Sequence record: ON871820 | Length of the DNA stretch: 64,000 nt | Strand: one strand, 5' to 3' | Source: Escherichia phage vB_Eco-B1.1 | Shown: positions 53,215-56,547 of the stretch, one piece after another | Layout: each line of letters starts with the position of its first letter | Numbering within the stretch: position 1 is the first letter of the stretch | Translations under genes and position numbers: made by a program | Notes under the pieces: model-generated | What the model was told of the DNA's origin: nothing | Databases searched by the model: none | What the model saw: only the letters and a program-made list of their open reading frames with translations

Positions 53215-53688
53215 ATGTTATTAACTGGCAAATTATACAAAGAAGAAAAACAGAAATTTTATGATGCACAAAACGGTAAATGCTTAATTTGCCAACGAGA
53301 ACTAAATCCTGATGTTCAAGCTAATCACCTCGACCATGACCATGAATTAAATGGACCAAAAGCAGGAAAGGTGCGTGGATTGCTTTGTAATCTATGCAAT
53401 GCCGCAGAAGGTCAAATGAAGCATAAATTTAATCGTTCTGGATTAAAGGGACAAGGTGTTGATTATCTTGAATGGTTAGAAAATTTACTTACTTATTTAA
53501 AATCCGATTACACCCAAAATAATATTCACCCTAACTTCGTTGGAGATAAATCAAAGGAATTTTCTCGTTTAGGAAAAGAGGAAATGATGGCCGAGATGCT
53601 TCAAAGAGGATTTGAATATAATGAATCTGACACCAAAACACAATTAATAGCTTCATTTAAGAAGCAGCTTAGAAAGAGTTTAAAATGA
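53215..53688 (+). CDS. 49: endonuclease VII (Holliday junction resolvase) gp49
   Basis: 157 aa MLLTGKLYKEEKQKFYDAQNGKCLICQRELN..., T4 gp49-like with zinc-binding Cys cluster; an AATAAATA late-promoter-like element at 53178-53185. Confidence 0.9.
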   Translation: MLLTGKLYKEEKQKFYDAQNGKCLICQRELNPDVQANHLDHDHELNGPKAGKVRGLLCNLCNAAEGQMKHKFNRSGLKGQGVDYLEWLENLLTYLKSDYTQNNIHPNFVGDKSKEFSRLGKEEMMAEMLQRGFEYNESDTKTQLIASFKKQLRKSLK

Positions 53689-54230
53689 CAATTGAAAAAG
53701 AAATTGAAGGATTGATTCATAAAACTAATAAAGACCTTTTAAACGAGAATGCTAATAAAGATTCTCGTGTTTTTCCAACTCAACGGGACCTTATGGCTGG
53801 TATTGTGTCTAAACACATTGCCAAAAATATGGTCCCGTCTTTTATTATGAAAGCGCATGAAAGCGGAATTATTCATTTCCATGATATTGATTATTCCCCT
53901 GCTCTTCCATTTACTAATTGCTGTTTAGTAGATTTAAAAGGAATGCTTGAAAACGGATTTAAGCTAGGTAATGCACAGATTGAAACTCCTAAATCAATTG
54001 GCGTTGCTACTGCAATTATGGCACAAATTACTGCGCAAGTTGCTTCCCATCAATATGGCGGAACGACTTTTGCTAATGTAGATAAAGTACTTTCTCCTTA
54101 TGTTAAACGCACCTATGCAAAACATATTGAGGATGCAGAAAAATGGCAAATCGCTGATGCGTTAAATTATGCTCAATCTAAAACAGAAAAAGATGTCTAT
54201 GACGCGTTTCAGGCGTATGAGTTAATTTAA
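53685..54230 (+). CDS. nrdD: anaerobic ribonucleotide reductase NrdD, exon 1
   Basis: 181-codon ORF ending at a stop that falls in the intron; second part of the protein resumes at about 55250; T4 nrdD carries a group I intron at this position. Confidence 0.85.
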   Translation: MTIEKEIEGLIHKTNKDLLNENANKDSRVFPTQRDLMAGIVSKHIAKNMVPSFIMKAHESGIIHFHDIDYSPALPFTNCCLVDLKGMLENGFKLGNAQIETPKSIGVATAIMAQITAQVASHQYGGTTFANVDKVLSPYVKRTYAKHIEDAEKWQIADALNYAQSKTEKDVYDAFQAYELI

Positions 54231-55250
54231 TTCAGGCTCATGTAAAACCGGTCTAAACGGGGAACCTCTCTAGTAGACAATCCCGTGCTAAATGTTCTTT
54301 TGAACTAAATGCCTAACGACTAACCGTGATGAATGTAGCGGTGTAGAATAGAAGCTAATGCTATTCGAAACGGCCGGCATCGAAAGATGAAGATATAGTC
54401 TAATCTGCATGGCGACATGCAGCAGTCATCTTGTATAAATAAGATTATCTTATGAATACGAGGTGAAACAATGAAATGGATAAAAAGACGTTGTACTAAA
54501 ATAAAAGATAAAGACGCATTTACATACTTAGTTAAGTTTTCTAATGGTGACATTTATATCGGTTATAAAAAATTTAGAACAATTAAAAACAAGCCCACAA
54601 ACTGGAAAACTTACACAACGTCATCTAAGTATATAAATGAACGCTTAAAAACTGATACACCTACTAAATGGATAATTTTAAAAACATTTGATAGTTATAA
54701 AGATGCATTAAAACATGAAGAAGAGGTCATACGTAAATATTTTTATAGCAAAAAATGTTTAAATAAATCCATAGGCGGTAAAAAGTTTTATAAGCATCCG
54801 GATACTGAAGAACATATTCAAAAATTAAGAGATGCTCATAAGGGTAAAGTGTTATCCGAATCTCATAAAAACAATATAAAATCTTCTGTAGCTGAATATT
54901 ATGCTAAAAACGGAAGATCTAAGGAACATGCGCAAAATAATATCAATAGTCGAAAAAGTAAAAAACAAGTATCGATAAAGCTTAAAAATAAAACTTTTAG
55001 AAGTTTTAAAAAAGCAGCGGAATATTTAAATTGCACTGAAAGTGAAGTCGAAACTCATCCTCTTGTTTTGAGTATTAAGACTACTATTCATAAAGTTCCT
55101 GAATATGTGGTTGTTGACGGTATTAAGTATACGTCTTATATAGAAGCAGCTAAAGCGCTAAATTTTCATCCTAGCACTATAAAAGAACGTTGCATATCTA
55201 TGGACTATCCAAATTTTGTTGTTTCATATAAACGGGCATGAATTTGCGAC
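54231..55250 (+). mobile_element. group I self-splicing intron in nrdD (boundaries approximate, about 20 nt either way)
   Basis: About 1 kb insert splitting nrdD; 5' region 54231-54470 is structured non-coding; contains a free-standing GIY-YIG endonuclease ORF. Confidence 0.7.
54471..55241 (+). CDS. GIY-YIG homing endonuclease (I-TevII-like) inside the nrdD intron
   Basis: 256 aa; N-terminal FTYLVKFSNGDIYIGY GIY-YIG motif; own RBS GAGGTGAAA. Confidence 0.8.
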   Translation: MKWIKRRCTKIKDKDAFTYLVKFSNGDIYIGYKKFRTIKNKPTNWKTYTTSSKYINERLKTDTPTKWIILKTFDSYKDALKHEEEVIRKYFYSKKCLNKSIGGKKFYKHPDTEEHIQKLRDAHKGKVLSESHKNNIKSSVAEYYAKNGRSKEHAQNNINSRKSKKQVSIKLKNKTFRSFKKAAEYLNCTESEVETHPLVLSIKTTIHKVPEYVVVDGIKYTSYIEAAKALNFHPSTIKERCISMDYPNFVVSYKRA

Positions 55251-56547
55251 TCATGCTGAATATAATGATGAAGTAAATACACTTTTCAGCTCTAATGGAC
55301 AAACTCCTTTTGTAACAATTACATTTGGTACGGGAACTGACTGGACTGAACGAATGATTCAGAAAGCAATTCTGAAAAATCGTATTAAAGGTCTCGGTCG
55401 TGATGGGATAACTCCTATTTTCCCTAAGCTTGTTATGTTCGTTGAAGAAGGTGTTAATCTTTATAAAGACGATCCGAACTATGATATTAAGCAGCTTGCT
55501 CTAGAGTGTGCAAGCAAAAGGATGTATCCTGACATCATTTCGGCTAAGAACAATAAAGCTATCACCGGCTCATCTATTCCTGTTTCTCCAATGGGTTGCC
55601 GTAGTTTCTTGAGCGTATGGAAAGATTCGACTGGTAATGAAATTCTTGATGGACGTAATAATCTCGGTGTTGTAACACTGAATCTTCCTCGTATCGCATT
55701 AGATTCTTATATTGGAACACAGTTCAATGAACAGAAATTTATCGAATTGTTCAATGAACGAATGGATTTATGTTTTGAAGCTTTGATGTGTAGAATTAGT
55801 TCCTTAAAAGGAGTTAAAGCTACTGTTGCTCCTATTCTTTACCAAGAAGGTGCATTCGGGGTTCGTCTTAAACCTGATGATGATATAATTGAGTTATTTA
55901 AAAACGGTAGAAGTTCAGTGTCCTTAGGATACATTGGTATTCACGAATTGAATATTCTTGTCGGTCGTGATATTGGACAAGAAATTTTAACTAAAATGAA
56001 TGCTCGTCTTAAGCAGTGGACTGAAAGAACTGGTTTTGCTTTTAGCTTGTATTCTACTCCTGCTGAAAACCTTTGTTATCGCTTCTGTAAACTTGATACC
56101 GAAAAATATGGAAGTGTAAAGGATGTTACCGATAAAGGTTGGTACACTAACAGTTTCCATGTTTCAGTAGAAGAAAATATTACTCCGTTTGAAAAGATTT
56201 CTCGTGAAGCGCCATATCATTTCATTGCGACAGGTGGTCACATTTCTTATGTTGAACTTCCTGATATGAAAAATAACTTAAAGGGTCTTGAGGCCGTATG
56301 GGATTATGCTGCACAACATTTAGATTATTTTGGTGTTAATATGCCAGTAGATAAATGTTTTACATGTGGAAGTACCCATGAAATGACTCCTACTGAAAAC
56401 GGATTTGTTTGTTCTATTTGTGGAGAAACTGATCCTAAAAAGATGAACACAATAAGAAGAACATGTGGTTATTTGGGAAATCCGAACGAACGCGGATTTA
56501 ATCTCGGTAAAAATAAAGAAATCATGCATAGGGTTAAACACCAATGA
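55251..56547 (+). CDS. nrdD: anaerobic ribonucleotide reductase NrdD, exon 2 (5' boundary approximate)
   Basis: Frame open from about 55216 to 56547; C-terminal glycyl radical motif RRTCGYLG and Cys-rich zinc site CFTCGSTHEM...CSICGETD. Confidence 0.8.

Follow-up and report, generated by a model that had tools for sequence, protein, structure and literature searches.

A group I intron of the sunY type, probably mobile, in nrdD of Escherichia phage vB_Eco-B1.1 represents an apparent sister lineage of the T4 nrdD intron

In the genome of Escherichia phage vB_Eco-B1.1 (sequence record ON871820), the reading frame of nrdD stops and is taken up again on the far side of an insert of 1045 nt. This raises the question of what the insert is, and how a complete NrdD protein could be made from such a locus. 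We analysed a stretch of 64,000 nt of this genome, hereafter called the window, and all coordinates refer to the whole of it. The reading that we prefer, at a rough probability of 0.93, is that of a mobile group I intron (subgroup IA2, sunY type) which occupies the identical site as the T4 nrdD intron and forms a sister lineage of it. The architecture of the sequence, the family membership, the in-frame junction, the covariation of the structure and the population footprints of transfer were observed directly; splicing and endonuclease expression would follow by homology, and the probable homing is supported by population data.

The NrdD frame opens at 53685 and runs into a stop codon at 54228-54230 (open reading frame, ORF, 53685-54230), as a preliminary description of this DNA had stated. 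Its continuation lies in a frame that is open between 55216 and 56547. To define exon and intron boundaries, the locus was aligned to T4 (NC_000866) and to intronless alleles, resulting in the following layout.

53685-54222, plus strand: nrdD exon 1, 179 codons and 1 nt (ORF list; alignment with T4 and intronless alleles; ligated ORF against PDB 1H78)
54222, plus strand: 5' splice site, U54222 being the final base of exon 1
54223-55267, plus strand: group I intron of 1045 nt, starting with UAAUUU and ending with AAUG (terminal G55267; alignments to T4 and intronless alleles)
55268-56547, plus strand: nrdD exon 2, 2 nt, 425 codons and the stop (ORF list; ligated ORF; 1H78 match)

The preliminary description had placed the resumption of NrdD near 55250. 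The resumption itself holds, and the exact start of exon 2 moves to 55268, the earlier coordinates having been within ~20 nt. It had also named an alignment to intronless nrdD as a check. This was run and fixes the boundaries: about 620 phage records carry an uninterrupted nrdD junction that is collinear across exactly the same site. In intronless alleles of the Shigella phage SF2-1 or Sf21 type the junction reads ...GCTTATGAAT|ATGAAGTAAATACTCTCTTTAG..., and the ligated junction expected in the window is ...GCGUAUGAGU|AUGAAGUA..., or GCGUAUGAGU|AUGAAGUAAAUAC with a longer 3' side. When the exons are joined, a single ORF of 1818 nt and 605 aa is obtained. This product aligns end to end (residues 1-605) with the T4 NrdD crystal-structure sequence (PDB 1H78), and the junction ...QAYE-Y-EVNTLF... 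is free of gaps.

One might ask at this point whether the interruption is simply an error of sequencing or assembly in a nrdD that is continuous. We found no point in favour of such an artefact, and consider it hardly credible, as the same 1045-nt insert recurs at ≥99.3% identity in 43 independently sequenced genomes and is internally coherent, comprising ribozyme, promoter and ORF.

The nature of the insert can be deduced from its 5' part, which had been described as structured and assigned to a group I intron, with the Rfam group I model as the proposed check. A search confined to a 266-nt slice matched RF00028 over the whole model (positions 1-253) at 54215-54422, with 67.9 bits (E = 1.8e-17) against a gathering score of 50 bits. 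The elements of the ribozyme are as follows.

54216-54242, plus strand: P1, formed by the exon end UAUGAGU and the internal guide GCUCAUG at 54236-54242 (Rfam alignment, RNAalifold)
54248-54422, plus strand: ribozyme core, lacking P2 (RF00028, RNAalifold, pair counts)
54248-53/54372-77, plus strand: P3
54257-62/54281-86, plus strand: P4
54267-70/54274-77, plus strand: P5
54287-88/54311-12, plus strand: P6
54318-22/54396-400, plus strand: P7
54323-27/54338-42, plus strand: P7.1
54346-51/54361-66, plus strand: P7.2
54378-81/54386-89, plus strand: P8
54405-11/54416-22, plus strand: P9
55235-55257, plus strand: 3'-terminal hairpin of 7 bp, GGCAUGA/UCAUGCU, 10 nt before the 3' splice site (folding)

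Covariation was assessed on four contiguous cores: those of the window, of the T4 nrdD intron, of the terminase-gene intron of Aeromonas phage 2L372X and of Campylobacter phage A110a. RNAalifold recovered P1, P3, P4, P5, P6/6a, P7.1, P7.2, P8 and P9 from these, and P7 was entered by hand as the pseudoknot partner (P3/P7). Over 56 pairs in 12 helices, 96.3% of the cells were paired, and in 24 of the 56 pairs both partners had changed in a compensatory manner. None of 500 shuffles was as good, and sliding the partners by 1-3 columns lowered the paired fraction to 32-42%. P7 (GACUA/UAGUC) is invariant among the aligned cores, so that it carries no covariation information. P7.1 and P7.2, which are typical of subgroup IA2, are present and covarying.

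The splice sites are equally well defined. Within P1, both the Rfam and the RNAalifold alignments contain the wobble pair U54222.G54236 at the splice site, and the final base of the intron is G55267. Additionally, a P10 helix could possibly form, in which the guide UUCA (54231-54234) would pair with UGAA of exon 2 (55269-55272). The 3' splice site is ~850 nt distant from the core, with the ORF placed downstream of P9. The endonuclease stop codon (55239-55241) falls into the 5' arm of the 3'-terminal hairpin. The T4 counterpart, GGUAGAG/CUCUACU, has both bases replaced in four of its seven pairs, and these still pair. A terminator-like site on the minus strand at 55256-55236 was rejected, being this same hairpin read on the wrong strand. 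No second intron core was found within the window. Because of the Rfam match, the covarying helices P1-P9, the U.G pair, the terminal G and the in-frame ligation of the exons, the group I assignment that had been proposed for the insert is supported at the level of sequence, and the intron is of subgroup IA2, sunY/td type.

These observations also bear on a different explanation, namely that nrdD is a split gene or pseudogene carrying a free-standing endonuclease cassette, comparable to nrdA/mobE of phage Aeh1, where no splicing takes place and the fragments are separate polypeptides or dead. GenBank records do list two separate NrdD coding sequences together with a 'hypothetical protein' or 'homing endonuclease', and intron-free split ribonucleotide reductase (RNR) genes exist (PMC3653736). 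Yet the 5' end of the insert holds a complete and covarying group I core, and its boundaries restore the frame exactly. Exon 2 has neither a start codon nor a ribosome binding site (RBS) of its own at 55268, and derivatives that have lost the endonuclease retain exactly the ribozyme parts. We thus regard the split gene as very improbable. For annotation, nrdD should be given as one gene with an intron, instead of the two fragments and hypothetical protein found in many GenBank records of this allele.

The 3' part of the intron is largely coding and contributes two further features.

54471-55241, plus strand: homing endonuclease gene, 256 aa, I-TevII family (ORF list, Pfam, I-TevII alignment, PHROG)
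54460-54463, plus strand: Shine-Dalgarno sequence GAGG, 7 nt 5' of the endonuclease ATG (sequence)

A free-standing ORF with its own RBS and the motif DIYIGY had been noticed before, and both elements were recovered here. DIYIGY represents the 'YIG' half of the domain; ten residues before it, FTYLV provides the 'GIY' half. Over its full length (257 columns) the protein is 56% identical to T4 I-TevII (E = 5e-101). Pfam assigns SegE_GIY-YIG (PF19835) to residues 9-106 with 27.4 bits (cut-off 25) and a NUMOD1 helix-turn-helix to residues 171-193 with 25.5 bits (cut-off 22.8), and the protein matches PHROG 314, 'homing endonuclease' (3.5e-29). A search of 5.8 billion clustered proteins returned no more than two clusters at E up to 1e-5, its own, with 64 member sequences that are 99% identical, and that of I-TevII, with 38 members; no intermediates between the endonucleases of the two intron lineages were found in this set. 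A profile search of 1.8 billion representatives returned 950 more distant relatives (E up to 0.001). Ten of these were checked and all match SegE_GIY-YIG at 25-60 bits, nine above the cut-off and one at 24.9. Within the window, tblastn finds only the gene itself and no paralogues. Against I-TevII, the synonymous divergence (dS) is 1.55 and the ratio of nonsynonymous to synonymous divergence (dN/dS) is 0.25; therefore, the protein has apparently been under purifying selection between the two lineages. Altogether, sequence comparison supports the assignment of the intron ORF as a GIY-YIG homing endonuclease, as first proposed, and places it in the I-TevII family, with DNA cleavage as its predicted activity.

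Several points weigh against this interpretation and have to be set beside the evidence for it. In the case of the endonuclease, the GIY-YIG score is barely over the Pfam cut-off, and PDB sequences, searched at E up to 10, gave no match. AlphaFold2, run on an alignment of three sequences, yielded a weak model (predicted local distance difference test, pLDDT, 63.8), and all Foldseek matches in the PDB had E values of 0.9 or more. Between the two I-TevII lineages, conservation does not extend to the arginine that should follow the YIG motif, which makes the catalytic assignment uncertain. In the case of the ribozyme, P5 holds one non-pairing position, with the identical sequence working in the td intron. 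RF00028 gave no match when the whole 64-kb window was scanned at the gathering threshold, and none in a stretch of 3 kb with E allowed up to 10. These misses at larger scale are false negatives of the search filter; the 266-nt slice scores 67.9 bits. In practical terms, automated Rfam scans of whole contigs can miss this intron, and sunY-type introns will be under-called. Finally, both splicing and cleavage are inferred from sequence.

The low-pLDDT model gives a beta-beta-alpha-beta-alpha secondary structure for the GIY-YIG domain. The top Foldseek hint was the DNA-binding domain of I-TevI (1I3J; probability 0.85, root-mean-square deviation 1.2 over 43 columns, non-significant E = 2.1), and a protein of GIY-YIG fold appeared among the matches as a weak hint; this structural route was not used as evidence. 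Catalytic residues transferred by global alignment to I-TevI were rejected, as the catalytic Glu was misplaced, and Y19, Y29, E83 and N98 are our own reading of the motif and are not presented as a result.

Whether the intron moves between genomes can be approached through its distribution. Besides the 43 full-length genomes, two records carry the window-type intron with internal deletions, and the T4 type is found in 25 records of the phage collection at ≥99%. Carriers of the window type belong to both Tequatrovirus and Mosigvirus, and their exons differ by 2-4%. In an intron-only search, vB_EcoM_SYGD1 was 99.9% identical. Two tracts of altered exon sequence flank the intron.

54197-54221, plus strand: 5' exon co-conversion tract, 8 synonymous third-position changes against intronless alleles (allele alignment)
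55281-55302, plus strand: 3' exon co-conversion tract, 7 synonymous changes against intronless alleles (allele alignment)

The changes of the 5' tract lie within the last 26 nt of exon 1 (54197, 54200, 54203, 54206, 54209, 54212, 54215 and 54221) and those of the 3' tract within the first 35 nt of exon 2 (+14, +17, +20, +23, +26, +29 and +35). Beyond both tracts, the adjoining ~65-75 nt of each exon show zero differences from intronless alleles. Other carriers have nested subsets of the exon 1 tract: it comprises -2 only in PNJ-6, extends to -11 in JM10, HY03, 215Ecol030PP and SA20RB, and reaches -26 in F1 and F27. In exon 2, +14, +17 and +20 are common to every examined carrier of the window lineage, and some reach +29 or +35. 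I-TevII cuts ~13-15 nt into exon 2. The final full codon of exon 1 is GAG in carriers of both lineages and GAA in intronless alleles; this G at -2, present in all carriers, is needed for P1 pairing. Such nested tracts are the pattern expected of repeated homing with variable co-conversion. Because ~620 intronless records exist and the carriers show these tracts, the ability of the intron to home into intronless alleles is indirectly supported.

Decay can be seen as well. The introns of 215Ecol030PP (479 nt; locus L004, 800-1279) and BYEP01 (345 nt; locus L018, 294-638) have different internal deletions between short direct repeats, by which the endonuclease gene is lost while core and 3' tail stay intact. 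Two independent deletions of this gene are the decay stage expected of a homing element. The annotation of vB_EcoM_F1 (locus L012, 887-1658) divides the endonuclease ORF into 887-1456 and 1485-1658. This locus has 1 nt more than the others, and the two observations suggest that the copy is frameshifted and in decay.

These decaying relatives, one with a split ORF and two with a deleted one, could also be taken to mean that the intron splices but has ceased to be mobile, its endonuclease ORF being inactive, and intact by recent descent, or targetless, so that the element is passed on vertically. The T4 nrdB intron offers a precedent of a defunct endonuclease (PMC1865063), and in the window the enzyme activity is a prediction. 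Such immobility is unlikely in our view, given a full-length ORF of 256 aa that is 99% identical across its 64-member cluster, a dN/dS of 0.25 maintained over a long divergence, a near-identical intron with nested co-conversion tracts in two genera, and the abundance of intronless targets. The mobile intron remains our preferred reading, and it leads to the question of how its endonuclease would be controlled. Three overlapping features upstream of the ORF are relevant here.

54426-54466, plus strand: RBS-sequestering hairpin, with its 3' arm at 54456-54466 (folding)
54434-54441, plus strand: TATAAATA, T4 late-promoter consensus, within the hairpin, where it spans 5' arm and loop (pattern search; annotated in SA20RB)
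54447-54467, plus strand: homing-site mimic, which may be an operator for autorepression or a remnant of ORF invasion (17 of 21 bases match the intronless junction)

The hairpin has a stem of 11 bp (54426-54436/54456-54466) in which GAGG is buried, with a folding energy of -17.6 kcal/mol (z = -6.2), and none of 200 shuffles folds equally well. An equivalent RBS hairpin exists in T4, with different arm sequences. The late-promoter consensus at 54434-54441 is its sole occurrence on the plus strand for 14 kb; a sigma-70 promoter scan gave fewer sites than in shuffled sequence and thus carried no information. For I-TevII it has been described that the RBS stays closed on early and middle read-through RNA and becomes open on a late transcript whose start lies inside the hairpin (PMC2988022). 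With its late-promoter box inside the RBS-hiding hairpin, the window intron has apparently kept this T4 control logic. The mimic at 54447-54467 matches the intronless exon junction (-11 to +10) in register across the insertion site, a score of 17 that 4 of 200 shuffles reach. It fits the operator that has been proposed upstream of the ORF for I-TevII (PMC2988022). The 17 matches lie immediately in front of the ORF, whose ATG is at 54471. The mimic also fits an idea reportedly put forward by Loizos et al. (1994), according to which the ORF entered the intron where the sequence resembled its own target.

Taken together, the following course of events could be envisaged. The nrdD precursor would be transcribed, its intron folding into the core (P1, P3-P9) within the first ~200 nt. 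Self-splicing initiated by guanosine would then cut after U54222, held by the internal guide in the U.G pair, and the small 3' hairpin together with P10 would bring in the 3' splice site after G55267, ~850 nt away, so that the exons could be joined to encode the full-length NrdD of 605 aa. On long early and middle nrdD transcripts, the endonuclease would be silent, its RBS hidden by the 11-bp hairpin. Late in infection, the TATAAATA promoter inside the hairpin would give a shorter RNA without the 5' arm, leaving the RBS free for the enzyme to be made. In a mixed infection, the GIY-YIG enzyme would cut intronless nrdD a short distance into exon 2, and in the repair of the double-strand break the cut genome would receive a copy of the intron along with flanking exon sequence of variable length.

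A further feature of the core points to an exchange between introns.

54252-54293, plus strand: 42-nt stretch covering P4-P5 and the start of P6, 100% identical to the T-even td intron (intron comparisons)

All 42 positions match td of T6 and of many other T-even phages. The T4 nrdD intron matches td at 41 of 49 positions, with gaps, in this stretch and is nearer to td across P7-P9, a trend opposite to that in P4-P6. This suggests a td/nrdD mosaic, possibly generated by conversion between co-resident introns. Intron shuffling of this kind is said to have been demonstrated in the laboratory by Bryk and Belfort in 1990.

Regarding the surroundings, the phage is T4-like (Tevenvirinae), the window is oriented opposite to the standard T4 map, and the closest deposited genomes are ~97% identical over 18 kb. 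The gene order is gp49, endonuclease VII (53215-53688), the interrupted nrdD (53685-56547) and nrdG (56544-57014), the ATG of nrdG overlapping the stop of nrdD as ATGA at 56544-56547. At this position, the window lacks mobC, the free-standing HNH endonuclease gene that lies between nrdD and nrdG in T4; in SA20RB a MobC-like gene is located there. Elsewhere in the window, 11 tRNA genes are clustered at 26687-27698, of which the one at 27268-27347 is barely over the Rfam threshold (30.2 against 29 bits).

As a whole, the finding is known biology and a member of a textbook system, and the allele is already present in dozens of annotated public genomes; specialists would find none of it surprising. 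What is modestly new is the 42-nt patch identical to td, and how deeply the introns at this one site are divided into two lineages, with no intermediates between them. In the literature searched, no paper on the second lineage or the td patch was found; they may be covered by Sandegren and Sjoberg 2004 (Journal of Biological Chemistry, JBC), whose accession series returned only two sequences, both from phage U5 and of the T4 type. The window lineage is now commoner than the T4 lineage in sequenced T-even phages (43 full-length against 25 records), and synonymous divergence between the lineages is ~8x that of the host gene. A wider picture, which we offer tentatively and with more doubt than conviction, would be that of two ancient nrdD intron lineages competing for one site, of which the window carries an uncharacterised one with a td-shared block as a product of natural domain shuffling, and with a possibly shifted target preference of the endonuclease. 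If the preference is shifted, the lineages might differ in the intronless alleles that they invade and in the 'immune' exon flanks that they leave behind. The two lineages, the graded tracts and the deletions of the endonuclease gene make up a clean natural data set for the cycle of invasion, fixation and decay, and two enzymes of the I-TevII family would allow target specificity to be compared.

How does this element relate to known systems? The closest is the T4 nrdD (sunY) intron, an IA2 intron with I-TevII, whose arrangement had been invoked from the start. The comparison holds for the site, which is the same to the nucleotide (after ...UAUGAGU, before AUGAAGU...), and was refined in that the intron appears, from its sequence, to be a sister lineage and not T4's own. 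Both share the order of parts: P1 is followed by P3-P9, P2 being absent, the ORF comes after P9, and a small 3' hairpin marks the approach to the distant 3' splice site. The endonucleases, of 258 aa in T4 and 256 aa in the window, are homologous. Both introns have the TATAAATA late promoter inside an RBS-sequestering hairpin and a homing-site-like sequence upstream of the ORF (for T4, PMC2988022). In contrast, nucleotide identity is ~66% in the intron and ~97% in the exons, and dS is 1.55 in the endonuclease gene and 0.20 in the exons. In this comparison, P3 is CCGGUC/GGCCGG against UCUGCC/GGCAGA, a compensatory difference, and the same applies to P7.1, P7.2, P8 and the 3' hairpin. The window intron is 12 nt longer, differs from the T4 type in its co-converted exon flanks, and has a P4-P6 segment identical to that of td and not to that of T4's nrdD intron.

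The td intron of T4 and T6, which encodes I-TevI, belongs to the same IA2 subgroup, with 42 of 42 nt shared over P4-P5-P6 and ~90% identity over P8-P9. Like the window intron, it has a GIY-YIG endonuclease with a late promoter and an RBS hairpin (PMC2988022). However, its host gene is thymidylate synthase, it has a P2, its ORF lies in the P6 region and splits the core instead of following P9, and I-TevI is 24% identical to the window endonuclease in a global alignment.

Introns of Vequintavirus (e.g. JEP1) and Campylobacter phages are also located in nrdD, and their IA2 cores are ~70-82% identical to that of the window over ~190 nt. Their insertion site is in the active-site region, ...SMG|C..., whereas that of the window is ...AYE|YEV..., and the JEP1-type intron has an HNH endonuclease inside the core, between P6 and P7. 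In JEP1 (locus L010, 988-1750) and A110a (locus L008, ~1490-1725), the IA2 cores interrupt nrdD after ...VTSMG, in the region of the active-site Cys. Because these related cores occupy a different site, nrdD seems to have been invaded at least 2 times by the IA2 ribozyme family. In Aeromonas phage 2L372X (locus L007, 1491-1871), two ORFs, each annotated 'terminase large subunit', flank a related group I core, which is probably an unannotated intron of the terminase gene. The annotation of Vibrio phage F92 (locus L009, 368-2668) breaks nrdD into at least 3 pieces and places two HNH endonuclease genes close by. At 1501-1637 there is a core fragment resembling the window intron; this nrdD may be multiply interrupted.

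Lastly, nrdA of phage Aeh1 is split by mobE, so that there, too, a homing endonuclease gene interrupts an RNR gene of a T4-like phage (PMC3653736). In that case there is no ribozyme and no splicing, and the two halves are separate polypeptides, whereas in the window a group I ribozyme would restore a single NrdD frame.

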